Origin: Escherichia coli
Lineage (GTDB): Bacteria; Pseudomonadota; Gammaproteobacteria; Enterobacterales; Enterobacteriaceae
Reading direction: 5' to 3' (one strand)
Assembly (NCBI RefSeq): GCF_003018115.1
Contig: NZ_CP027457.1
DNA length: 64,000 bases
Position numbers and translations under genes: made by a program. Below, one piece after another: positions 7,532 to 51,624 of this stretch. Each line of letters begins with the position of its first letter. Position 1 is the stretch's first letter. The notes beneath the pieces are model-generated. The model was not told the origin of the DNA. It made no database searches and worked only from the letters and a program-made list of their open reading frames with translations.

Positions 7532-7556
7532 AGATGATCGAATCCGAGGAGTGGTA

Positions 7557-8846
7557 ATGAAAGGCACTATCTTCGCCGTAGCATTGAACCATCGCAGCCA
7601 ACTTGATGCCTGGCAGGAAGCGTTCCAGCAATCTCCCTACAAAGCCCCGCCTAAAACTGCGGTCTGGTTTATTAAACCGCGCAATACGGTGATTGGTTGC
7701 GGTGAACCGATTCCCTTTCCACAGGGTGAAAAGGTACTGAGCGGTGCGACAGTTGCGCTGATTGTGGGAAAAACGGCGACGAAAGTACGTGAAGAAGATG
7801 CGGCAGAGTACATCGCCGGATATGCGCTGGCTAACGACGTCAGCCTGCCGGAAGAGAGCTTTTACCGCCCGGCAATCAAAGCAAAATGTCGTGATGGATT
7901 CTGCCCCATTGGCGAAACCGTGGCTCTCAGCAATGTCGATAATCTGACTATCTATACCGAGATCAACGGGCGTCCTGCCGATCACTGGAATACCGCCGAT
8001 TTACAACGTAACGCCGCACAGCTGCTGAGCGCCCTGAGCGAATTTGCCACGCTAAATCCAGGCGATGCCATTCTGCTCGGCACGCCACAGGCGCGCGTGG
8101 AAATACAGCCAGGCGATCGCGTGCGTATTCTCGCAGAAGGTTTCCCGCCGCTGGAAAATCCGGTAGTGGACGAACGTGAAGTGACCACGCGCAAGAGCTT
8201 CCCAACGCTGCCACACCCGCACGGTACGCTGTTTGCCCTCGGCCTGAACTACGCCGACCACGCCAGCGAACTGGAATTTAAGCCACCGGAAGAGCCGCTG
8301 GTGTTCCTGAAAGCGCCGAATACCCTCACTGGCCATAACCAGACCTCCGTGCGCCCGAACAATATTGAATACATGCACTACGAAGCGGAGCTGGTGGTAG
8401 TTATTGGCAAGCAGGCGCGTAACGTCAGCGAAGCCGATGCCATGGATTATGTCGCGGGCTACACCGTGTGTAACGACTACGCCATTCGCGACTATCTGGA
8501 AAACTACTACCGCCCTAACCTGCGGGTCAAAAGCCGCGACGGACTGACGCCGATGCTTTCAATCATCGTGCCGAAAGAGGCGATCCCGGACCCGCATAAT
8601 CTGACCCTTCGCACCTTCGTCAACGGCGAGTTACGCCAGCAAGGCACCACCGCCGATCTGATCTTCAGCGTGCCCTTCCTGATCGCCTACTTAAGCGAAT
8701 TTATGACCCTGAATCCGGGCGACATGATCGCCACCGGCACACCAAAAGGCTTATCTGACGTGGTGCCTGGCGATGAAGTAGTGGTAGAAGTAGAAGGCGT
8801 GGGCCGCCTGGTGAACCGAATTGTGAGTGAGGAAACAGCGAAATGA
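7557..8846 (+). CDS. hpaG: Bifunctional OPET decarboxylase / HHDD isomerase (FAH family)
   Basis: Two tandem fumarylacetoacetate-hydrolase-like halves in the translation; ATG at 7557 preferred over the ORF-track GTG at 7551. Confidence 0.9.
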   Translation: MKGTIFAVALNHRSQLDAWQEAFQQSPYKAPPKTAVWFIKPRNTVIGCGEPIPFPQGEKVLSGATVALIVGKTATKVREEDAAEYIAGYALANDVSLPEESFYRPAIKAKCRDGFCPIGETVALSNVDNLTIYTEINGRPADHWNTADLQRNAAQLLSALSEFATLNPGDAILLGTPQARVEIQPGDRVRILAEGFPPLENPVVDEREVTTRKSFPTLPHPHGTLFALGLNYADHASELEFKPPEEPLVFLKAPNTLTGHNQTSVRPNNIEYMHYEAELVVVIGKQARNVSEADAMDYVAGYTVCNDYAIRDYLENYYRPNLRVKSRDGLTPMLSIIVPKEAIPDPHNLTLRTFVNGELRQQGTTADLIFSVPFLIAYLSEFMTLNPGDMIATGTPKGLSDVVPGDEVVVEVEGVGRLVNRIVSEETAK

Positions 8847-10309
8847 AAAAAGTAAATCATTGGATCAACGGCAAAAATGTTGCAGGTAACGACTACTTCC
8901 AGACCACCAATCCGGCAACGGGTGAAGTGCTGGCGGATGTGGCCTCTGGCGGTGAAGCGGAGATCAATCAGGCGGTAGCGGCAGCGAAAGAGGCGTTCCC
9001 GAAATGGGCCAATCTGCCGATGAAAGAGCGTGCGCGCCTGATGCGCCGTCTGGGCGATCTGATCGACCAGAACGTGCCTGAGATCGCCGCGATGGAAACC
9101 GCGGACACGGGCCTGCCGATCCATCAGACCAAAAATGTGTTGATCCCACGCGCTTCTCACAACTTTGAATTTTTCGCGGAAGTCTGCCAGCAGATGAACG
9201 GCAAGACCTATCCGGTTGACGACAAGATGCTCAACTACACGCTGGTGCAACCGGTAGGCGTTTGTGCGCTGGTGTCACCGTGGAACGTGCCGTTTATGAC
9301 CGCCACCTGGAAGGTCGCGCCGTGTCTTGCGCTGGGCAATACCGCGGTGCTGAAGATGTCGGAACTCTCCCCGCTGACCGCTGACCGCCTGGGTGAGCTG
9401 GCGCTGGAAGCCGGTATTCCGGCGGGCGTGCTGAACGTGGTACAGGGCTACGGCGCAACCGCAGGGGATGCGCTGGTTCGTCATCATGACGTACGTGCCG
9501 TGTCGTTCACCGGCGGTACGGCCACCGGGCGCAACATCATGAAAAACGCCGGGCTGAAAAAATACTCCATGGAACTGGGCGGTAAATCGCCGGTGCTGAT
9601 TTTTGAAGATGCCGATATTGAACGCGCGCTGGACGCTGCCCTGTTCACCATCTTCTCAATCAACGGCGAACGCTGCACCGCCGGTTCGCGCATTTTTATT
9701 CAACAGAGCATCTATCCAGAATTCGTTAAACGCTTTGCCGAACGCGCCAACCGTCTGCGCGTGGGCGATCCGACCGATCCGAATACCCAGGTTGGGGCGC
9801 TTATCAGCCAGCAGCACTGGGAAAAAGTCTCCGGCTATATCCGTCTCGGCATTGAAGAAGGCGCAACCCTGCTGGCGGGCGGCCCGGATAAACCGTCCGA
9901 CCTGCCTGCGCACCTGAAAGGCGGCAACTTCCTGCGCCCAACCGTGCTGGCAGACGTTGATAACCGTATGCGAGTCGCCCAGGAAGAGATTTTCGGGCCG
10001 GTCGCCTGCCTGCTGCCGTTTAAAGACGAAGCCGAAGGCTTACGTCTGGCAAACGACGTGGAGTACGGCCTCGCGTCGTACATCTGGACGCAGGATGTCA
10101 GCAAAGTGTTACGCCTGGCGCGTGGCATTGAAGCTGGCATGGTGTTCGTCAACACCCAGAACGTGCGTGACCTGCGCCAGCCATTTGGCGGCGTAAAAGC
10201 CTCCGGCACCGGGCGTGAAGGCGGTGAGTACAGCTTCGAAGTGTTCGCGGAAATGAAGAACGTCTGCATTTCCATGGGCGACCATCCAATTCCGAAATGG
10301 GGAGTCTGA
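8843..10309 (+). CDS. hpaE: 5-carboxymethyl-2-hydroxymuconate semialdehyde dehydrogenase (NAD-dependent aldehyde dehydrogenase)
   Basis: 488-aa ORF with aldehyde dehydrogenase motifs (ELGGKSP, catalytic Cys in GERCTAGSR); start overlaps hpaG stop (ATGA). Confidence 0.9.
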   Translation: MKKVNHWINGKNVAGNDYFQTTNPATGEVLADVASGGEAEINQAVAAAKEAFPKWANLPMKERARLMRRLGDLIDQNVPEIAAMETADTGLPIHQTKNVLIPRASHNFEFFAEVCQQMNGKTYPVDDKMLNYTLVQPVGVCALVSPWNVPFMTATWKVAPCLALGNTAVLKMSELSPLTADRLGELALEAGIPAGVLNVVQGYGATAGDALVRHHDVRAVSFTGGTATGRNIMKNAGLKKYSMELGGKSPVLIFEDADIERALDAALFTIFSINGERCTAGSRIFIQQSIYPEFVKRFAERANRLRVGDPTDPNTQVGALISQQHWEKVSGYIRLGIEEGATLLAGGPDKPSDLPAHLKGGNFLRPTVLADVDNRMRVAQEEIFGPVACLLPFKDEAEGLRLANDVEYGLASYIWTQDVSKVLRLARGIEAGMVFVNTQNVRDLRQPFGGVKASGTGREGGEYSFEVFAEMKNVCISMGDHPIPKWGV

Positions 10310-10310
10310 T

Positions 10311-11162
10311 ATGGGTAAGTTAGCGTTAGCCGCCAAGATCACGCACGTACCGTCGATGTATCTCTCTGAACTGCCAGGGAAAAACCACGGTTGCCGCCAG
10401 GGCGCGATCGACGGGCATAAAGAGATCAGCAAGCGTTGCCGGGAAATGGGCGTCGATACCATTATCGTTTTCGATACCCACTGGCTGGTCAACAGTGCTT
10501 ATCACATCAACTGTGCAGACCATTTTGAAGGCGTCTACACCAGCAACGAGCTGCCGCATTTTATCCGCGATATGACCTACAACTACGAGGGCAACCCGGA
10601 GTTGGGGCAGCTTATTGCCGATGAAGCCTTAAAGCTCGGCGTGCGGGCAAAAGCGCACAACATTCCCAGCCTGAAACTGGAATACGGCACGCTGGTGCCA
10701 ATGCGCTACATGAATGAAGACAAGCACTTCAAAGTGGTTTCCATTTCAGCTTTCTGCACTGTTCACGATTTTGCCGACAGCCGCAAGCTGGGCGAGGCTA
10801 TTCTGAAAGCGATCGAACAGTACGACGGCACCGTGGCGGTCCTTGCCAGCGGTTCGTTATCGCACCGCTTTATTGACGATCAGCGAGCGGAAGAAGGGAT
10901 GAACAGCTACACCCGCGAGTTCGACCGCCAGATGGACGAGCGCGTGGTGAAGCTGTGGCGCGAAGGCCAGTTCAACGAGTTCTGCAATATGCTGCCGGAG
11001 TATGCCGACTACTGCTACGGCGAAGGCAATATGCACGACACGGTGATGCTGCTGGGGATGCTCGGCTGGGATAAATACGACGGCAAGGTGGAGTTTATCA
11101 CCGAGCTATTCCCAAGCTCTGGCACCGGTCAGGTTAACGCTGTTTTCCCGCTTCCCGCGTAA
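10311..11162 (+). CDS. hpaD: 3,4-dihydroxyphenylacetate (homoprotocatechuate) 2,3-dioxygenase, extradiol type
   Basis: 283-aa ORF starting 1 nt after the hpaE stop; LigB-type extradiol dioxygenase family by recall. Confidence 0.88.
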   Translation: MGKLALAAKITHVPSMYLSELPGKNHGCRQGAIDGHKEISKRCREMGVDTIIVFDTHWLVNSAYHINCADHFEGVYTSNELPHFIRDMTYNYEGNPELGQLIADEALKLGVRAKAHNIPSLKLEYGTLVPMRYMNEDKHFKVVSISAFCTVHDFADSRKLGEAILKAIEQYDGTVAVLASGSLSHRFIDDQRAEEGMNSYTREFDRQMDERVVKLWREGQFNEFCNMLPEYADYCYGEGNMHDTVMLLGMLGWDKYDGKVEFITELFPSSGTGQVNAVFPLPA

Positions 11163-11171
11163 GGACGTTTT

Positions 11172-11552
11172 ATGCCGCACTTTATCGTGGAATGTACTGA
11201 AAATATTCGTGAAGAAGCCCGCTTACCTGAGCTGTTTGCCAGTGTTAACACTGCACTGGCGGCAACGGGGATTTTTCCGCTTGGGGGAATACGTAGCCGG
11301 GCGCACTGGATCGATACCTGGCAAATGGCTGATGGCAAGCACGATTACGCCTTTGTGCATATGACGCTAAAAATCGGCAGCGGACGCAGTCTGGAAAGCC
11401 GTCAGGAAGTAGGCGAAATGCTGTTTGATCTGATTAAAACGCACTTCGCCTCACTGATGGAGAGCCGTTACCTGGCGCTTTCATTTGAGATTGCAGAGCT
11501 GCACCCGACGTTGAATTTCAAACAGAACAACGTACACGCGTTGTTTAAATAA
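11172..11552 (+). CDS. hpaF: 5-carboxymethyl-2-hydroxymuconate isomerase
   Basis: 126-aa ORF; position and size match HpaF. Confidence 0.85.
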
Positions 11553-11619
11553 ATTTGCACCAGCTTCCAGGCCGGATGATAAGGCGCAGCCGCATCCGGC
11601 AATGCCACAGGATATCGCT

Positions 11620-12423
11620 ATGTTCGATAAACACACCCACACCCTGATCGCCCAGCGTCTGGATCAGGCAGAAAAACAGCGCGAACAGATCCGCGCGATC
11701 TCGCTGGATTACCCGGAGATCACCATCGAAGACGCTTACGCGGTGCAGCGCGAATGGGTTCGCCTGAAAATAGCCGAAGGCCGTACGCTGAAAGGCCACA
11801 AAATCGGACTGACCTCGAAAGCGATGCAGGCCAGCTCACAGATCAGCGAACCAGATTACGGTGCATTGCTGGACGACATGTTCTTCCACGATGGCAGCGA
11901 TATCCCGACCGATCGCTTTATCGTACCGCGCATTGAAGTGGAGCTGGCTTTTGTGCTGGCAAAACCGCTGCGTGGGCCAAACTGCACGCTGTTCGACGTT
12001 TACAACGCCACGGACTATGTGATCCCGGCGCTGGAGCTGATCGACGCTCGCTGCCACAACATCGATCCGGAAACTCAGCGCCCGCGCAAAGTGTTCGACA
12101 CCATTTCTGATAACGCCGCCAACGCCGGAGTGATCCTCGGAGGTCGTCCGATCAAACCAGACGAACTGGATCTGCGTTGGATCTCCGCCCTCATGTATCG
12201 CAATGGCGTGATTGAAGAAACCGGCGTCGCCGCTGGCGTGCTGAATCACCCGGCAAACGGCGTGGCCTGGCTGGCGAACAAACTCGCACCGTATGACGTA
12301 CAACTGGAAGCCGGGCAAATCATTCTCGGTGGTTCGTTTACCCGCCCGGTTCCGGCGCGTAAGGGCGACACCTTCCACGTCGATTACGGCAACATGGGCT
12401 CCATTAGCTGCCGCTTTGTTTAA
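11620..12423 (+). CDS. hpaH: 2-oxo-hept-3-ene-1,7-dioate hydratase
   Basis: Translation from [14 protein letters not shown] (267 aa); start chosen at the second Met of the ORF-track entry. Confidence 0.85.
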
Positions 12424-12433
12424 GGAGAGAACG

Positions 12434-13222
12434 ATGGAAAACAGTTTTAAAGCGGCGCTGAAAGCAGGCCGTCCGCAGATTGGATTATGGCTGGGGCTGA
12501 GCAGCAGCTACAGCGCGGAGTTACTGGCCGGAGCAGGATTCGACTGGTTGTTGATCGACGGTGAGCACGCACCGAACAACGTACAAACCGTGCTCACCCA
12601 ACTACAGGCGATTGCGCCCTACCCCAGCCAGCCGGTGGTACGTCCGTCGTGGAACGATCCGGTGCAAATCAAACAACTGCTGGATGTCGGCACACAAACC
12701 TTACTGGTGCCGATGGTTCAAAACGCTGACGAAGCCCGTGAAGCGGTACGCGCCACCCGTTATCCCCCCGCCGGTATTCGCGGTGTGGGCAGTGCGCTGG
12801 CTCGCGCCTCGCGCTGGAATCGCATTCCTGATTACCTGCAAAAAGCCAACGATCAAATGTGCGTGCTGGTGCAGATCGAAACGCGTGAGGCAATGAAGAA
12901 CTTACCGCAGATTCTGGACGTGGAAGGGGTCGACGGCGTGTTTATCGGCCCGGCGGATCTGAGCGCCGATATGGGTTATGCCGGTAATCCGCAGCACCCG
13001 GAAGTACAGGTCGCCATTGAGCAGGCGATCGTGCAGATCCGCGAAGCGGGTAAGGCGCCGGGGATCCTGATCGCCAATGAGCAACTGGCAAAACGCTATC
13101 TGGAACTGGGCGCGCTGTTTGTCGCCGTCGGCGTTGACACCACCCTGCTCGCCCGCGCCGCCGAAGCGCTGGCAGCACGGTTTGGCGCGCAGGCTACAGC
13201 GATTAAGCCCGGCGTGTATTAA
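12434..13222 (+). CDS. hpaI: 4-hydroxy-2-oxo-heptane-1,7-dioate aldolase (HpcH/HpaI class II aldolase)
   Basis: Translation from [19 protein letters not shown] (262 aa) with AGGAGA 7 nt upstream; the ORF-track entry 12293..13222 starts upstream inside hpaH. Confidence 0.85.
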
Positions 13223-13223
13223 T

Positions 13224-13351
13224 GCCGGATGCGCTGCGCTTATCCGGCCTACACTCGCACCAAATCGTAGGCCTGATAAGGCGTTACGCCGCATCAGGCA
13301 AAAAGCCGTACCAAATCGCGGACCGGATAAGGCGTTTACGCCGCATCCGCC
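13224..13351. repeat. Cluster of three REP (BIME-type) elements between hpaI and hpaX
   Basis: GCCGGATGCGCTGCGCTTATCCGGCCTAC, GTAGGCCTGATAAGGCGTTACGCCGCATCAGGC and CGGACCGGATAAGGCGTTTACGCCGCATCCGCC read directly. Confidence 0.75.
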
Positions 13352-13396
13352 ATAAACCTTGTCGTACCCTACAAAAATCCCATTAGAGGAAGAAAA

Positions 13397-14773
13397 ATGA
13401 GCGACACCTCACCTGCCATACCGGAGAGTATCGATCCGGCGAATCAGCATAAAGCGCTGACTGCCGGACAACAGGCGGTTATTAAGAAGTTGTTTCGCCG
13501 CCTGATCGTCTTTCTGTTCGTGCTGTTTATCTTCTCGTTCCTTGATCGCATCAACATCGGCTTTGCCGGACTCACGATGGGACGCGACCTCGGTCTGAGC
13601 GCCACCATGTTTGGCCTCGCCACCACCCTGTTCTACGCCGCTTATGTCATCTTCGGCATTCCCAGCAACATTATGCTGAGTATTGTCGGTGCGCGACGCT
13701 GGATCGCCACCATCATGGTACTTTGGGGCATCGCCTCTACTGCCACCATGTTTGCCACTGGCCCCACCAGCTTGTACGTACTGCGTATACTGGTTGGCAT
13801 TACCGAAGCCGGCTTTCTGCCCGGTATTCTGCTCTATTTAACCTTCTGGTTTCCGGCCTACTTCCGCGCCCGTGCCAACGCCTTGTTTATGGTGGCAATG
13901 CCGGTAACGACAGCGTTGGGATCGATCGTTTCCGGCTACATTTTGTCGCTGGATGGCGTAATGGCATTAAAAGGCTGGCAGTGGCTGTTTTTGCTGGAAG
14001 GCTTCCCGTCGGTATTACTCGGCGTCATGGTGTGGTTCTGGCTTGATGACTCACCGGACAAAGCTAAGTGGCTGACGAAAGAAGACAAAAAATGCCTGCA
14101 AGAGATGATGGATAACGATCGTCTGACGCTGGTTCAGCCAGAGGGAGCCATCAGCCACCATGCCATGCAACAACGCAGCATGTGGCGGGAGATCTTCACT
14201 CCGGTGGTGATGATGTATACCCTGGCGTATTTCTGCCTGACCAACACACTTAGTGCGATCAGCATCTGGACACCGCAGATCCTGCAAAGCTTTAATCAGG
14301 GCAGCAGTAATATCACCATCGGCCTGCTGGCCGCCGTACCGCAGATTTGTACCATTCTCGGGATGATCTACTGGAGCCGTCACTCAGATCGCCGCCAGGA
14401 ACGAAGGCATCACACCGCCCTTCCTTATTTGTTCGCTGCCGCTGGTTGGTTACTGGCTTCGGCAACTGATCACAACATGATCCAGATGCTGGGGATCATT
14501 ATGGCTTCGACCGGATCATTCAGCGCAATGGCGATTTTCTGGACAACACCGGATCAGTCCATCAGCCTGCGGGCACGAGCGATCGGTATTGCGGTGATCA
14601 ACGCCACTGGCAACATTGGTTCAGCATTAAGTCCGTTTATGATCGGCTGGTTGAAAGATCTGACCGGCAGCTTTAACAGTGGATTGTGGTTTGTTGCCGC
14701 GCTGCTGGTGATTGGTGCAGGGATTATCTGGGCAATTCCAATGCAGTCCTCCCGTCCGCGAGCGACCCCGTAA
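13397..14773 (+). CDS. hpaX: 4-hydroxyphenylacetate permease (MFS)
   Basis: 458-aa polytopic membrane ORF within the hpa cluster. Confidence 0.85.
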   Translation: MSDTSPAIPESIDPANQHKALTAGQQAVIKKLFRRLIVFLFVLFIFSFLDRINIGFAGLTMGRDLGLSATMFGLATTLFYAAYVIFGIPSNIMLSIVGARRWIATIMVLWGIASTATMFATGPTSLYVLRILVGITEAGFLPGILLYLTFWFPAYFRARANALFMVAMPVTTALGSIVSGYILSLDGVMALKGWQWLFLLEGFPSVLLGVMVWFWLDDSPDKAKWLTKEDKKCLQEMMDNDRLTLVQPEGAISHHAMQQRSMWREIFTPVVMMYTLAYFCLTNTLSAISIWTPQILQSFNQGSSNITIGLLAAVPQICTILGMIYWSRHSDRRQERRHHTALPYLFAAAGWLLASATDHNMIQMLGIIMASTGSFSAMAIFWTTPDQSISLRARAIGIAVINATGNIGSALSPFMIGWLKDLTGSFNSGLWFVAALLVIGAGIIWAIPMQSSRPRATP

Positions 14774-14782
14774 GGAACGACG

Positions 14783-15673
14783 ATGTGTGACCGTCAGATT
14801 GCCAATATTGATATCAGCAAAGAGTACGATGAAAGCCTGGGCACGGACGATGTGCATTATCAGTCGTTCGCCCGCATGGCGGCATTTTTTGGCCGCCATA
14901 TGCTGCCACATCGCCACGAACAGTACTTTCAGATGCATTTCCTCAATAGCGGACAGATTGAGCTACAGCTTGACGATCATCGCTACTCGGTGGAAGCGCC
15001 CCTGTTTGTCCTGACGCCGCCGTCAGTACCTCATGCGTTTATTACGGAGTCTGACGCCGACGGTCATGTGTTGACGGTACGGGAAGATCTGATCTGGCCC
15101 CTGCTGGAAGTTCTTTATCCAGGCACTCGGGAAACCTTCGGCCTGCCGGGGATTTGCCTGTCACTGGCAGATAAACCCGACGAACTGGCGGCGCTGGAAC
15201 ACTATTGGCAACTGATAGAGCGGGAATCGGTGGAACAACTGCCTGGACGGGAACACACCCTGACGTTACTGGCACAGGCAGTGTTCACCCTACTGCTGCG
15301 TAACGCAAAACTCGACGATCATGCCGCCAGCGGAATGCGCGGAGAATTAAAACTGTTCCAGCGTTTTCATATGCTGATTGAAAGCCATTTTCATCAGCAC
15401 TGGACAGTACCAGATTACGCTAACGAACTGCATATCACCGAATCACGCCTCACGGACATCTGCCGCCGCTTTGCCAACCGTCCGCCAAAACGGTTGATTT
15501 TCGACAGGCAGCTGCGAGAAGCCAAACGGCTGCTGCTGTTTTCTGATAACGCCGTGAACAATATTGCCTGGCAACTCGGTTTTAAGGATCCGGCTTATTT
15601 TGCGCGCTTTTTTAATCGCTTAGTCGGTTGCTCGCCCAGTGCTTATCGCGCCAAAAAAGTACCTGTGACGTGA
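14783..15673 (+). CDS. hpaA: AraC/XylS-family activator of hpaBC
   Basis: 296-aa ORF with C-terminal AraC-type HTH (…DPAYFARFFNRLVGCSPSAYR…); immediately upstream of hpaBC. Confidence 0.85.
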   Translation: MCDRQIANIDISKEYDESLGTDDVHYQSFARMAAFFGRHMLPHRHEQYFQMHFLNSGQIELQLDDHRYSVEAPLFVLTPPSVPHAFITESDADGHVLTVREDLIWPLLEVLYPGTRETFGLPGICLSLADKPDELAALEHYWQLIERESVEQLPGREHTLTLLAQAVFTLLLRNAKLDDHAASGMRGELKLFQRFHMLIESHFHQHWTVPDYANELHITESRLTDICRRFANRPPKRLIFDRQLREAKRLLLFSDNAVNNIAWQLGFKDPAYFARFFNRLVGCSPSAYRAKKVPVT

Positions 15674-15923
15674 AAATCCCTTAGCCTTAACGGGAAACCA
15701 GGCATCACCTGCTATTCCCCTTTCTCCGCCTGGAGCAAGGGGATTTAGTAACGTTAAAAATCGCTAAAAGCGACCTCGATCACAAAACCGTACCCGACCT
15801 GAAAAGTACCAGCCATTGTCCCAAAAGTCTCTTCCCGTAATCGCCCCTGCAAGCTTCAATTGAATAACAAAAACAACACACAAAATTAACAATCGTATTC
15901 CGATTAATACTGTAGAGGTCGAC

Positions 15924-17486
15924 ATGAAACCAGAAGATTTCCGCGCCAGTACCCAACGTCCGTTCACCGGGGAAGAGTATCTGAAAAGCCTGCAGGATGG
16001 TCGCGAGATCTATATCTACGGCGAGAGAGTGAAAGACGTCACCACTCATCCGGCATTTCGTAATGCGGCAGCGTCTGTTGCCCAACTGTACGACGCGCTA
16101 CACAAACCGGAGATGCAGGACTCTCTGTGTTGGAACACCGACACCGGCAGCGGCGGCTATACCCATAAATTCTTCCGCGTGGCGAAAAGTGCCGACGACC
16201 TGCGCCAGCAACGCGATGCCATCGCTGAGTGGTCACGCCTGAGCTATGGCTGGATGGGCCGTACCCCAGACTACAAAGCTGCTTTCGGTTGCGCACTGGG
16301 CGCGAATCCGGGCTTTTACGGTCAGTTCGAGCAGAACGCCCGTAACTGGTATACCCGTATTCAGGAAACTGGCCTCTACTTTAACCACGCGATTGTTAAC
16401 CCACCGATCGATCGTCATTTGCCGACCGATAAAGTGAAAGACGTTTACATCAAGCTGGAAAAAGAGACTGACGCCGGGATTATCGTCAGCGGTGCGAAAG
16501 TGGTTGCCACCAACTCGGCGCTGACTCACTACAACATGATTGGTTTCGGCTCGGCACAAGTGATGGGCGAAAACCCGGACTTCGCACTGATGTTCGTTGC
16601 GCCAATGGATGCCGATGGCGTGAAATTAATCTCCCGCGCCTCTTATGAGATGGTCGCGGGTGCTACCGGCTCGCCGTACGACTACCCGCTCTCCAGCCGC
16701 TTCGATGAGAACGATGCGATCCTGGTGATGGATAACGTACTGATCCCTTGGGAAAACGTGCTGATCTACCGCGATTTCGATCGCTGCCGTCGCTGGACGA
16801 TGGAAGGCGGTTTTGCCCGTATGTATCCGCTGCAAGCCTGTGTGCGCCTGGCAGTGAAACTCGACTTCATCACGGCACTGCTGAAAAAATCACTCGAATG
16901 TACCGGCACCCTGGAGTTCCGTGGTGTGCAGGCCGATCTCGGTGAAGTGGTGGCGTGGCGCAACACCTTCTGGGCATTGAGTGACTCGATGTGTTCAGAA
17001 GCGACGCCGTGGGTCAACGGGGCTTATTTACCGGATCATGCTGCACTGCAAACCTATCGCGTACTGGCACCAATGGCCTACGCGAAGATCAAAAACATTA
17101 TCGAACGCAACGTTACCAGTGGCCTGATCTATCTCCCTTCCAGTGCCCGTGACCTGAACAATCCGCAGATCGACCAGTATCTGGCGAAGTATGTGCGCGG
17201 TTCGAACGGTATGGATCACGTCCAGCGCATCAAGATCCTCAAACTGATGTGGGATGCCATTGGCAGCGAATTTGGTGGTCGTCACGAGCTGTATGAAATC
17301 AACTACTCCGGTAGCCAGGATGAGATTCGCCTGCAATGTCTGCGCCAGGCACAAAGCTCCGGCAATATGGACAAGATGATGGCGATGGTTGATCGCTGCC
17401 TGTCGGAATACGACCAGAACGGCTGGACTGTGCCGCACCTGCACAACAACGACGATATCAACATGCTGGATAAGCTGCTGAAATAA
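15924..17486 (+). CDS. hpaB: 4-hydroxyphenylacetate 3-monooxygenase, oxygenase component (FADH2-dependent)
   Basis: 520-aa ORF MKPEDFRASTQRPFTGEEYLKSLQDGREIYIYGERV...; matches HpaB as recalled. Confidence 0.9.
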   Translation: MKPEDFRASTQRPFTGEEYLKSLQDGREIYIYGERVKDVTTHPAFRNAAASVAQLYDALHKPEMQDSLCWNTDTGSGGYTHKFFRVAKSADDLRQQRDAIAEWSRLSYGWMGRTPDYKAAFGCALGANPGFYGQFEQNARNWYTRIQETGLYFNHAIVNPPIDRHLPTDKVKDVYIKLEKETDAGIIVSGAKVVATNSALTHYNMIGFGSAQVMGENPDFALMFVAPMDADGVKLISRASYEMVAGATGSPYDYPLSSRFDENDAILVMDNVLIPWENVLIYRDFDRCRRWTMEGGFARMYPLQACVRLAVKLDFITALLKKSLECTGTLEFRGVQADLGEVVAWRNTFWALSDSMCSEATPWVNGAYLPDHAALQTYRVLAPMAYAKIKNIIERNVTSGLIYLPSSARDLNNPQIDQYLAKYVRGSNGMDHVQRIKILKLMWDAIGSEFGGRHELYEINYSGSQDEIRLQCLRQAQSSGNMDKMMAMVDRCLSEYDQNGWTVPHLHNNDDINMLDKLLK

Positions 17487-17503
17487 CGCAGCAGGAGGTT
17501 AAG

Positions 17504-18016
17504 ATGCAATTAGATGAACAACGCCTGCGCTTTCGTGACGCGATGGCCAGCCTGTCGGCAGCGGTAAATATTATCACCACCGAGGGCGACGCCGGACAAT
17601 GCGGGATTACGGCAACGGCCGTCTGCTCGGTCACGGATACCCCTCCGTCGCTGATGGTGTGCATTAACGCCAACAGTGCGATGAACCCGGTTTTTCAGGG
17701 CAACGGCAAGTTGTGCGTCAACGTCCTCAACCATGAGCAGGAACTGATGGCGCGCCACTTCGCGGGCATGACGGGCATGGCGATGGAAGAGCGTTTTAGC
17801 CTCTCGTGCTGGCAAAAAGGTCCGCTGGCGCAGCCGGTGCTAAAAGGTTCGCTGGCCAGTCTTGAAGGTGAGATCCGCGATGTGCAGGCGATTGGCACAC
17901 ATCTGGTGTATCTGGTGGAGATTAAAAACATCATCCTCAGTGCAGAAGGTCACGGACTTATTTACTTTAAACGCCGTTTCCATCCGGTGATGCTGGAAAT
18001 GGAAGCTGCGATTTAA
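17504..18016 (+). CDS. hpaC: 4-hydroxyphenylacetate 3-monooxygenase, NADH:flavin reductase component
   Basis: 170-aa ORF 17 nt after hpaB; flavin reductase-like domain. Confidence 0.9.
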   Translation: MQLDEQRLRFRDAMASLSAAVNIITTEGDAGQCGITATAVCSVTDTPPSLMVCINANSAMNPVFQGNGKLCVNVLNHEQELMARHFAGMTGMAMEERFSLSCWQKGPLAQPVLKGSLASLEGEIRDVQAIGTHLVYLVEIKNIILSAEGHGLIYFKRRFHPVMLEMEAAI

Positions 18017-30045: not shown

Positions 30046-32139
30046 TTATACCAACGCGCTCTCCATCTGTTTTTCAAATGCCTGACGAATTAATCCCATA
30101 ATATAAGGAAGTTGTGCGAGGTCGCTGAAACCAATTTCCACATCGCCATTGCCCCATCGCCCAACATTTGTCACATCTTTGGCAATACCTTTCGGATCGA
30201 CCAGTTCATGAAACTGCATATTAAGCGACAATCGCAGTCGGCTTTTTTGCGGCACAACATCAACAAAATTCGTTTCAGCTTTAAACGCAATATAGAGCTT
30301 CAATACTTCCTGCGTGATCCCTGCGTCCAGGCGCATAACTTCATCGCTAAGATGATCGAATAACACCCGGCTATGCGAACCATCAGCAAGAAAAGGATAA
30401 TCACTCAGGCTGTAACTGGTTTTGTTTTCCGGCTGCCCCCGATAAACAGCTAAAACCTCTTCAGGAAGAGAAGGCGCTTGCCAGACCTGAACCGCGAGAT
30501 CGGCCAGACGATCGGCTCGGGCGTGAATGGCGGCTTCATCCCATTTTTCGCACTGTCCAAGACCGATATTCAAATAAAGCGGGCTATGCTTAAAGCCGTC
30601 TTCAATATCGCGTTTTTCCGCGAAAGGTCTGTCACTGTAGCGGGAGTTATAGCGCGTTAAAGTGAGATTCCCCAACGTATGTAACAGTTCTTTATGCACA
30701 CGCTGCCAGTCGCTTCCCAGCTCTTCGCGCCATTTAGCCGACAAATTTTCGTTCTGCGGCATAATATGTTCAATCGTAAACTCTTCCACGCGCTCTCTGC
30801 GTTTATCGTTTTCCAGTCGTCGTAACCAGTAGCTGCGACTACGGAAGTTATAGAGATCGCGAACTTTTAATTCCCGTTTAAATTCATCATCGTTGGGGAA
30901 ACGACGATATGAAGGTAGATTCAAAAAATGTACCTGAATACTTTCCAGATAATTTTCTTTATTAATAACTTTATAAAAAGTGGCAAATGTCTTGTTCAAA
31001 GAATTTGTCGGAATTGCACATACTGCACGGCGGAAAACATAAGATTCAATTAAACGAATTATGCTCAGGAAATCTTCGTGAGACAAATCGTCATTTTTAT
31101 AGTCATGATAAAGCGCCAGTAAGAAAGGATACGCCACATCAACCTTTAACTCGCGCAAATCCTGAAAAGCCGTAGCAAGCGATTTGTCACTTTCTTTTCC
31201 CAATGCCATTGCACAGTAATACTCCGCGTAGATGTGAATATCTTCAACCAGCCGATCTACGCCTTTTTCAGCAACACTCTGGCTGCGGGCATGGAGTTTA
31301 AATGCCTCATAGACTTCATCTGTCCGAGGGATCTCCCCCGTTTTTACCGTCAGATAATGACGCATAAAACTGTCAAAATATTCGCTGTAACCTTGCTGAC
31401 CAAAAGCGACTTCCATTGGACGCCAGTGATCTTCATACAACCGGGTTTGATGCTCTGGTTCGAGGCCCATCAGAATAAAATTGCGCACCAGATCGGCCTG
31501 ACTTAACGCCTTACCGGTGGAGTTCATACTTTCAAAAATCAGTTGCGGATTATCCTGACCACGATTAAGCGCCACATCGACAATTAATAACTTTGCTAAC
31601 CCACGACATAAGGGGATCAAGTCATCACCGAGTTTGGCAATTTGCTCATCAAAGAAAGTAAAGTTTTCCATTATTCGATGGGAATAGTTTTCTGGCATTG
31701 GTCTTTGTTTTATTAACGCCAGTAAACTGTCTTTATCAGTCTCGGTCAGCAGTAATTTAAAACCTTTCTCGCCGGACTCATAAGGATTGAGCAAATAATA
31801 ATTACGCAATTTCATTGCCGAAAAGCCATCAAAAACTTCGTCTTCGCCAAGATGGCGCGATAAAGCCTCAATCAGCAACATTGCGGTCGTCAGCCGCTGC
31901 TGACCATCAATGACCAGCAACGGAGAAATACCAGAAACCTGATACAATCCCTGCTCTATATAAACAACCGAACCGATAAAATGCGCTGATATATCGTCAC
32001 GCTTTCCTGCACGAATGATGTCGTCCCAAAGTTGCCGACATTGTTGCCCGGTCCATGAATAAGTCCGTTGATAAATGGGAATAACAAACTGCTGCGAACG
32101 TTTTAAAAAATCGAGTAGGCGAGCTTCTGTAGCTTTCAT
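30046..32139 (-). CDS. Single-chain GmrSD-family protein (N-terminal DUF262 ParB-like NTPase, C-terminal DUF1524 His-Me finger nuclease); putative type IV modification-dependent restriction endonuclease
   Basis: 697-aa ORF; N-terminal motifs FVIPIYQRTYSW and DGQQRLTT (DUF262); C-terminal EHIMPQ ... LGNLTL (DUF1524/HNH-like). Gene is AT-rich relative to flanks and sits where mcrBC lies in K-12. Confidence 0.8.
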   Translation of the reverse strand: MKATEARLLDFLKRSQQFVIPIYQRTYSWTGQQCRQLWDDIIRAGKRDDISAHFIGSVVYIEQGLYQVSGISPLLVIDGQQRLTTAMLLIEALSRHLGEDEVFDGFSAMKLRNYYLLNPYESGEKGFKLLLTETDKDSLLALIKQRPMPENYSHRIMENFTFFDEQIAKLGDDLIPLCRGLAKLLIVDVALNRGQDNPQLIFESMNSTGKALSQADLVRNFILMGLEPEHQTRLYEDHWRPMEVAFGQQGYSEYFDSFMRHYLTVKTGEIPRTDEVYEAFKLHARSQSVAEKGVDRLVEDIHIYAEYYCAMALGKESDKSLATAFQDLRELKVDVAYPFLLALYHDYKNDDLSHEDFLSIIRLIESYVFRRAVCAIPTNSLNKTFATFYKVINKENYLESIQVHFLNLPSYRRFPNDDEFKRELKVRDLYNFRSRSYWLRRLENDKRRERVEEFTIEHIMPQNENLSAKWREELGSDWQRVHKELLHTLGNLTLTRYNSRYSDRPFAEKRDIEDGFKHSPLYLNIGLGQCEKWDEAAIHARADRLADLAVQVWQAPSLPEEVLAVYRGQPENKTSYSLSDYPFLADGSHSRVLFDHLSDEVMRLDAGITQEVLKLYIAFKAETNFVDVVPQKSRLRLSLNMQFHELVDPKGIAKDVTNVGRWGNGDVEIGFSDLAQLPYIMGLIRQAFEKQMESALV

Positions 32140-32235: not shown

Positions 32236-32400
32236 TCACTCCACATCCTCCCTGCGTAACCCGATATCCCTCAACCGTTCATCACTCATCTGCTGTAACA
32301 CCCGTCGGGCCTGCATTTGCCGCCGCCAACGCCTCACCGCCTGCCAGAGTTGCACAAGTCTGATAAACGGCGTTTTGGCTTTGTTTTCGTAAAATTCCAT
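32236..32400 (-). CDS. yjiS: Small DUF1127-family protein
   Basis: 54-aa ORF MEFYENKAKTPFIRLVQLWQAVRRWRRQMQARRVLQQMSDERLRDIGLRREDVE, hand-translated (below the ORF-track size cut-off); AGGAGG 6 nt upstream of ATG. Confidence 0.7.
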   Translation of the reverse strand: MEFYENKAKTPFIRLVQLWQAVRRWRRQMQARRVLQQMSDERLRDIGLRREDVE

Positions 32401-32576
32401 CTGCTGCCTCCTCATCTTTCAGAGGCTTCATCATCCGTCTTCTGGCAGTTCACAATACAGATGCAAATATTAGTTTTATTTAACATACAGACAGGTTAAA
32501 ACAGCATCTGCATCCGGTTTTTTAGCCTCATCTGTACCGGTTTTTCTCTCTGTATGGTCCAAATAAGGAATACAGC

Positions 32577-34230: not shown

Positions 34231-35165
34231 TTAGTACTCGATCCATGGATCGCGCTTGCTTTCAGGCAAGGGTTGCTCTAATGCCTGCATTTGCTCTGCC
34301 GAAAGTCCAGTATATCGTTGTATCCATTCAGGATCCGCACCGTTCTGCAAAAGCAATCTAAGGAGGCGTTGTTCCCCTTCTTCTTTCCCCTTTTCCATCC
34401 CTAACAGCCATCCATCATTATGAATTCGCTCTGCAATCGTCATTATTCGCTCCCTTTGTTGTGGCATTCGACGGGTAAGTTCACTGATAAACTCATTAAA
34501 ACGCGCTTCATCGCCAGTCAGTAAAATGTAATTTAACAGCGCAGTTATCTGGCTGTCATTAGCACACTCTGTAACCAGTAATATTACCAGTTGATCGATA
34601 AGCCCCATCAGATCGCGCTGGCGAATATGCTTTTGGATCAACTCCAACAGGGCGACTCTGCGGTGCTGCACAATCTCGTCGTCAGGCACGACAGTGACAT
34701 CCACCAGCGGGAACGCTGCAGTATAAAGTTTCCGTGCAGTAGTCGGGTCGGCAAATTCGTCCAGCCAGCACAGGGACCAGGGATAAGGACTACGGCTACC
34801 GTGATAAAACAGCATCGGGATGACCAGCGGTAACGGCCGGCGTTTATCATGCTCGATATGGCGCTGCATCACCGCCATGGAATAGCGCATCAGGCGAAAG
34901 GCCATATGAATATCCTCACGGCTCTGATGTTCAATCACCACATAGATATAGCCATCACCTTCACGGGTCTCTACCGACCACAGAATATCGGAGTGTAGCT
35001 TTCATCGACAAAGCTGGCGGATTCCAGTTTTAAGCTGTCGAGATCGCACAGTTCACGTAAATCTTTGGGTAAGTGGATCTCCATAAAATCCCGCGCGGTG
35101 TCAGGATGCGTGAGAAAGGATTTAAATAATGCGTCATGCGGCGTGCTGGTCGTGAAGTTTGTCAT
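34231..35165 (-). pseudogene. rpnD: Rpn-family (YhgA-like, PD-(D/E)xK) recombination-promoting nuclease gene split by a -1 frameshift
   Basis: Two adjacent minus-strand ORFs in different frames (34971..35165 [17 protein letters not shown]...; 34231..34941 ...[20 protein letters not shown]...). Hand translation shows the downstream frame reads ...[27 protein letters not shown] with no gap, so one missing base in the GATGAAAGC A-run near 35000..35003 explains the split. Confidence 0.7.
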
Positions 35166-51584: not shown

Positions 51585-51624
51585 ATACCCACATGGCTGA
51601 TAAGATACCCACATGGCTGATAAG
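51585..51624. repeat. Perfect 20-bp tandem direct repeat in the kptA-yjiH divergent intergenic region
   Basis: ATACCCACATGGCTGATAAG occurs twice head-to-tail; read directly. Confidence 0.85.

Follow-up and report, generated by a model that had tools for sequence, protein, structure and literature searches.

A lineage-specific 10-bp deletion inactivates the long form of rpnD in Escherichia coli and leaves the internal RpnD-S reading frame intact

To characterize a broken Rpn-family gene, we analysed a 64,000-nucleotide stretch of Escherichia coli DNA (hereafter, the window) whose minus strand carries two open reading frames of 64 and 236 amino acids, the latter with a GTG start assigned mechanically (Table 1). 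The shorter frame, which encodes the N-terminal piece, matches positions 1-50 of the PF04754 profile, and the longer, C-terminal one matches positions 73-202, with fragment scores of 69.4 and 166.4 bits (cutoff 21). Because the two frames match consecutive segments of PF04754, they are pieces of one gene. The restored 314-aa protein reaches 289.3 bits against PF04754 and 168.6 bits against TIGR01784 (cutoff 52.1), so that fragments and restored protein alike exceed the curated family cutoffs for Rpn / YhgA-like nucleases (PF04754 Transposase_31; TIGR01784). Its score against the RpnA equivalog model, 380 bits, lies below the cutoff of 583, as would be expected of the rpnD paralogue. In RefSeq/PGAP the same coordinates bear the label 'Rpn family recombination-promoting nuclease/putative transposase, frameshifted'.

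The first-pass annotation, made from the letters alone, had joined the two minus-strand frames into one rpnD-like Rpn gene and called that gene a pseudogene. Both claims hold: the PF04754 segments, the frames and the RefSeq 'frameshifted' annotation agree on a single gene, and the net frame error is -1. The intact orthologues that we compared are single continuous reading frames, with no stop/start arrangement at this site.

The gene order mdtM-rpnD-yjiR is common to the window strain, O145 and K-12, and K-12 rpnD (yjiP/yjiQ), which shares this synteny, is 93% identical to the window in nucleotide sequence over the gene. Matches to the locus at 90-100% identity are found in 4,243 of 5,426 complete E. 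coli genomes, at a single place in each. Chromosomal position and closest similarity identify the locus as the rpnD orthologue (K-12 yjiP), which borders the hsd/mrr 'immigration control' defence island. E. coli F8111-1SC3 (NZ_CP024269.1) matches the window at 99.95% identity across 64 kb, with 10 SNPs and one 20-bp indel separating the two and an rpnD locus that is 100% identical. Between yjiH and kptA, a 20-bp sequence is tandemly duplicated in the window (ATACCCACATGGCTGATAAG twice) and single-copy in F8111-1SC3; together with the 10 SNPs, this duplication marks the window as a very close relative of F8111-1SC3 and not that exact assembly.

Other features were recorded in the window (Table 1). 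Adjoining symE-hsdS-hsdM-hsdR-mrr, a DUF262 pseudogene fragment is followed by a separate GmrSD-domain CDS, and the pair has the appearance of a type IV restriction enzyme broken in two, another decayed defence gene. In the yjiS region two very small, overlapping CDSs are annotated ('cytoplasmic protein' and DUF1127), as against a single yjiS in O145 and K-12, and the split may reflect either a further small lesion or a peculiarity of the annotation. Between btsT and tsr lies a complete hpa (4-hydroxyphenylacetate catabolism) cluster, presumably absent from K-12; it is an ordinary strain-variable island.

Table 1. Features of the rpnD locus and of the remaining window (coordinates are window positions)
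Feature	Position	Strand	Remark
rpnD (yjiP/yjiQ orthologue) pseudogene, 935 nt	34231..35165	-	ancestral allele 945 nt / 314 aa
N-terminal frame, 64 codons + TAG	34971..35165	-	first 55 residues native; sole catalytic residue kept is D11; stop TAG at 34973..34971
10-bp deletion junction	34999..35000	-	AATTGCGGGC absent between these bases; residual A-run 35000..35002
GATGAAAGC, site of one-base insertion in silico	35006..34998	-	
C-terminal frame, open after TGA (35004..35002) to native stop	34231..35001	-	D63, E82, Q84 and R94, out of start-codon frame
236-aa ORF within the C-terminal frame	34231..34941	-	mechanical start GTG at 34941
Codon D63	34989..34987	-	
Codon E82	34932..34930	-	
Possible restart ATG (M91)	34905..34903	-	GAGGA 7 nt upstream
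Promoter-like ATGACA-18-TAAATT, TG extension	34530..34559	-	~87 nt upstream of RpnD-S ATG; candidate internal promoter
Shine-Dalgarno-like AGGGAG	34450..34455	-	6 nt upstream of RpnD-S ATG; direct sequence reading
RpnD-S ORF, 70 aa, putative intragenic antitoxin, ends WIEY*	34231..34443	-	intact; ATG 34443..34441
4-aa repeat zone	34369..34410	-	varies in 12-nt steps among alleles; allele alignment
hpa cluster	~7556..18016		complete
DUF262 pseudogene fragment, then GmrSD-domain CDS	~30046..32139	-	
yjiS region, two overlapping tiny CDSs	~32236..32434		
20-bp tandem duplication, yjiH-kptA intergenic	51565..51604		

Intact rpnD, encoding 306-318 aa in 4-aa steps, is the norm in E. coli. Sampling across the range of similarity showed an intact CDS at 12 of the first 17 loci, and intact 314- and 318-aa protein clusters in the protein database hold 1,060, 2,569 and 3,918 members. 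Most E. coli have previously been reported to carry a complete YjiP, K-12 being interrupted by a premature stop, for which a repaired allele was used (Kingston et al. 2015, PMC4498929). The apparent conflict between the internal TAG of K-12 and an active 'WT RpnD' (Kingston 2017) is resolved by the use of that synthetic repaired gene, yjiPc (PMC4498929).

Sampled alleles measure 921, 933, 945 or 957 nt and differ by 12-nt blocks directly after NDGWLLG. The RpnD alleles reproduce, in the first RpnS helix, the strain-to-strain 4-aa repeat variation described for RpnS helices (PMC10400941). Comparison of alleles gave dN/dS values of 0.06 (residues 1-100), 0.18 (residues 101-244) and 0.35 (RpnS part), evidence that the gene is under purifying selection. 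Allelic dS is high (0.12-0.24), which fits the position of rpnD beside the hypervariable hsd/mrr island. One allele (protein P0033) has an in-frame 15-aa deletion with E82 and Q84 gone; a variant of this type is toxin-dead yet full-frame, and annotation pipelines would not flag it as a pseudogene.

Alignment with the O145 and K-12 alleles revealed that the window lacks ten bases, GATGAAA[AATTGCGGGC]GCTACAC. When all 10-bp deletions from the O145 sequence were enumerated by brute force, the placement was unique, at gene positions 167-176 of the 945-nt ancestor, and this placement test against the O145 sequence found no microhomology or direct repeats flanking the deletion. Parts of codons 56-59 (K56-L57-R58-A59) are affected. 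Restoring the 10 bp yields a 945-nt gene and a 314-aa protein with 95-97% identity to intact RpnD (e.g., WP_032214570.1 and WP_000181173.1, 314 aa). These intact alleles share the length class (945 nt) and repeat number of the window's ancestor; unlike the window, they retain AATTGCGGGC and encode a continuous protein.

The junction is rare. Among 5,426 complete E. coli genomes, an exact match to the junction 81-mer was limited to three, F8111-1SC3, O169:H41 2014EL-1345-2 and L7_E1373_ETEC, at least two of which are O169:H41/L7 ETEC strains; none of the three differs from the window in the gene sequence compared. The 3,478 other matching genomes fall within an 80-90% identity band, the best match being 89.0% over 91 bases, which corresponds to presence of the ten extra bases. 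No intermediate or 'repaired' junction class was found among the 3,481 genomes matched in the 81-mer search. This distribution indicates that the 10 bp were lost recently and within one lineage, O169:H41/L7 enterotoxigenic E. coli.

The deletion divides the catalytic residues of the long form, RpnD-L, between two frames that overlap by about 30 nt. All five catalytic codons are present in the DNA, yet D11 is now read in a different frame from D63, E82, Q84 and R94; because these residues are not united in one polypeptide, the gene is a family pseudogene and not a functional member. In an alignment of 49 homologues that includes the restored protein, D11, D63, E82 and R94 do not vary and Q84 is conserved in at least 90%, and at the deletion itself L57 is invariant and R58 at least 90% conserved. 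The biochemical exemplar of PF04754 / TIGR01784 is RpnA (YhgA), which shares its domain family with the window gene and has D11, D63, E82, Q84 and R94 at the same numbering; it is a paralogue and not an orthologue, and it is intact in K-12 whereas the window rpnD is broken. In RpnA, D11A, D63A, E82A and Q84K abolish the recombination, toxicity and SOS phenotypes, Q84A and R94A abolish recombination alone, and loss of in vitro nuclease activity was demonstrated for D63A (Kingston et al. 2017, PMC5350276).

In N-terminally damaged alleles (P0059, P0063, P0094), gene callers place the start at M91. A product restarted there or at the mechanical GTG would be without D11 and D63. The full-length nuclease/toxin RpnD-L is, as judged from its reading frames, dead. 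Mg-dependent DNA endonuclease activity, toxicity and SOS induction are known from experiments on RpnA-D, and overexpressed RpnD stimulates recombination independent of RecA, is lethal to recA-deficient cells and triggers the SOS response. The window allele is expected to lack the endonuclease activity, the toxicity and the SOS induction.

An AlphaFold2 model of the restored protein, built from the 49-sequence alignment, has a mean pLDDT of 60, which is low confidence. Its order of elements (strand 40-47, strand 63-70, strand 76-84, helix 91-109 and strand 117-125) is compatible, at that low confidence, with a PD-(D/E)XK fold, and residues 55-61 link the first and second core strands in this weak model (pLDDT 60). 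A Foldseek search against the PDB returned nothing at E < 0.05, its top matches being assorted nucleases at E > 0.05. A phmmer search of the PDB with the restored protein gave no match, not even to the RpnA-S crystal structure. The PD-(D/E)XK assignment thus draws on sequence families and the literature. None of the PADLOC defence models match rpnD.

Genes of the rpn family are genes-within-genes in which RpnL is a toxic endonuclease and RpnS its antitoxin (Zhong et al. 2023, PMC10400941), the latter being a small C-terminal protein produced from an internal start and an internal transcript (PMC10400941). This RpnL/RpnS toxin-antitoxin layout is shared by RpnA and the window gene, in which an in-frame internal start preceded by a ribosome-binding site opens a reading frame for a small C-terminal protein. 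The RpnD-S start methionine (M245) is invariant in the 49 homologues. A candidate internal promoter lies upstream (Table 1), although a search for sigma-70-like promoters of RpnD-S yielded 2 sites versus 2.4 expected by chance (shuffle). The 200 nt upstream of the RpnD-S ATG contain 2 mismatches to K-12, neither of which appears to fall inside the promoter hexamers.

In K-12, RpnS was detected for all five rpn genes and RpnL for B, C and E only (PMC10400941); RpnD-S was detected there via an SPA tag (PMC10400941), and Ribo-RET gave internal initiation peaks in five of five rpn genes. K-12 rpnD resembles the window gene in having a broken long form and an intact RpnD-S ORF, but its RpnS helix is two 4-aa repeats shorter and its C-terminal tail differs. 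By analogy with K-12, RpnD-S is probably still made as an orphan. The plasmid-encoded RpnP2 L/S system shares the family and the toxin-antitoxin logic with rpnD (PMC10400941) and is the sole family member with demonstrated phage defence (PMC10400941); RpnP2 L/S is plasmid-borne and intact, whereas the window rpnD is chromosomal and broken.

Collectively, these observations make it very probable that rpnD was killed by a 10-bp deletion specific to its lineage, with the RpnD-S ORF left intact. The ancestral gene would have been a chromosomal gene-within-gene toxin-antitoxin locus of the Rpn/YhgA-like PD-(D/E)XK nuclease family. The loss at codons 56-59 shifted the frame, and the native start now yields a 64-aa peptide with D11 only. 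The RpnD-S ORF, its Shine-Dalgarno sequence and the sequence upstream of it are untouched, and orphan RpnD-S production probably continues. The window object is an ordinary pseudogene of a known family, already annotated and with a documented K-12 precedent.

The window lesion is the ninth that we compiled for rpnD. The K-12 gene carries a nonsense mutation, CAG>TAG at codon 104 (PMC4498929), distinct from the 10-bp deletion at codons 56-59 of the window and present as an exact 61-mer in 338 genomes, and O145 carries TGC>TGA at codon 40 (29 genomes); RpnS is intact in both, as it is in the window lineage. RpnS is likewise intact in strain 181.1 (1-bp deletion, codon 133), strain 67-1 (7-bp deletion, codon 130) and STEC1587 (125-bp insertion, codon 150; L024:551-675), and it is destroyed in BS-04 by a 2-bp deletion in the repeat zone at codon 260. 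The STEC1587 insertion (…AAGTGAGTGAATCCCCAGGAGCTTAC…GTGACTGGGGTGA…) may resemble an ERIC/IRU repeat element. A subset of O157 strains, among them SRCC 1675 (L013:286-1243), has a 25-bp tandem duplication (ATAATGACGATTGCAGAGCGAATTC), seen also in H145 and H146, that spans the RpnS start codon; it frameshifts the long form and recreates the RpnS start in the second copy, from which RpnS is intact. Protein P0012 shows a reciprocal-looking in-frame deletion of 7 aa (IMTIAER) that removes the RpnS start; both this deletion and the O157 duplication lie between GAGCGAAT direct repeats.

The window's sister strain 2014EL-1345-2 has acquired a secondary lesion, an IS66-family element (tnpA/B/C; L020:1268-3800) with an 8-bp target duplication (AACTTACC, gene positions 685-692), inserted 31 nt upstream of the RpnS ATG with the RpnS ORF intact. 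PGAP calls the stranded 70-aa RpnS ORF alone in this strain, as hypothetical protein WP_099490892.1. Decay of rpnD is continuing: this IS66 sits inside an already broken gene. Length was not a multiple of three in 6 of about 46 full-length matches from a spread sample. Truncated database proteins were dropped as a lesion census because many of them are cut off at contig ends within the GA-rich repeat zone, and because fragments from the C-terminal side are subject to ascertainment bias. The lesions indicate repeated, independent inactivation of rpnD across natural E. coli lineages.

Such recurrence raises the question of whether the toxin is lost adaptively, RpnD-L being costly, while the orphan antitoxin RpnD-S is retained by selection. 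At least eight independent lesions hit the long form across lineages, RpnD overexpression is toxic, and the O157 25-bp duplication regenerates an intact RpnS start, all of which speak for this reading. However, the lesions fall along the gene much as a uniform distribution would place them: RpnS makes up 22.5% of the gene and contains 1 of the 9 lesions versus 2.0 expected, so that 8 of 9 miss RpnS where about 7 would be expected (P = 0.36 for at most one hit), and preferential sparing of RpnS was not detected in this set. Moreover, RpnS is lost in BS-04, the IS66 element splits RpnS from its upstream sequence in the sister strain, and most genomes keep an intact gene under purifying selection. 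We consider adaptive toxin loss with selected antitoxin retention unlikely. Equally doubtful is the proposal that an expressed orphan RpnD-S is kept by selection, for example because it neutralises incoming RpnD-L alleles of the same repeat number or cross-regulates other Rpn paralogues; this orphan-antitoxin idea is allowed, but unsupported, by the small lesion survey.

A functional split or recoding, in which the two frames supply two useful proteins or are joined by programmed -1 ribosomal frameshifting, is very improbable. The overlap of the frames would permit it, and the M91 ATG with its GAGGA Shine-Dalgarno sequence could restart translation to give a 224-aa, catalytically dead protein with the RpnS domain. 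Against this stand the intact orthologues, which are single ORFs and make the split arrangement a derived one confined to 3 genomes, and the partition of the active site, with D11 on one piece, E82/Q84/R94 on the other and D63 ahead of any usable start. Programmed frameshifting in particular was rejected, as GAU GAA AGC contains no slippery heptamer and the arrangement is derived and rare.

The loss of a single A by replication slippage, which would make the window allele a readily reversible, phase-variable-like off-state, is less credible still. This was the mechanism proposed by the first-pass annotation, and its origin is understandable: ten equals nine plus one, the net effect is a -1 frame error, and a reader with no comparator would accordingly infer one missing A. 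The site also adjoins an A-run, of five A's in intact alleles and three in the window, and one A added at GAAAG, or one base inserted in GATGAAAGC, does fuse the two ORFs. The predicted fusion was correct as to the frames; the resulting 311-aa product reads ...VDEKLHSD... and is without R58-A59-L60, five residues before the catalytic D63. Every compared allele, whether intact or otherwise damaged, carries the ten extra bases AATTGCGGGC, and aligning the same locus in other strains, the check that the annotation itself had suggested, disclosed the loss of 10 bp and not of one A. Nor did the idea of a slip that can revert survive: the 3,481 matching genomes present only two states, with no one-base variants and no homopolymer length polymorphism, and the tract-length polymorphism with on and off states 1 nt apart that defines a phase-variable locus is not seen among them. 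Slippage as the origin of the lesion is already refuted by these sequence comparisons, and true reversion would need the 10 bp back via recombination with an intact allele.

An assembly or sequencing artefact in a gene that is really intact in the organism is just as implausible, for although homopolymer errors often account for frameshifts in long-read assemblies and an A-run adjoins the site, such errors do not typically take the form of a clean 10-bp deletion, and the same junction in three independent, separately deposited assemblies (the window may be one of the two beside F8111-1SC3) excludes an assembly artefact.

The 10-bp deletion in rpnD offers a lesson in method, as a -1 frame error beside an A-run mimicked a reversible slip, and claims of reversibility need comparison with intact alleles. 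As a private lesion of the O169:H41/L7 ETEC clone, the deletion could serve as a lineage marker. If selected retention of orphan RpnD-S were true, the rpnD 'pseudogenes' of K-12, O145, O157 and O169:H41 would be streamlined antitoxin genes. Beyond correct annotation the significance of the finding is small: rpnD is a toxic nuclease gene at the border of a restriction/defence island, and it is often inactivated.
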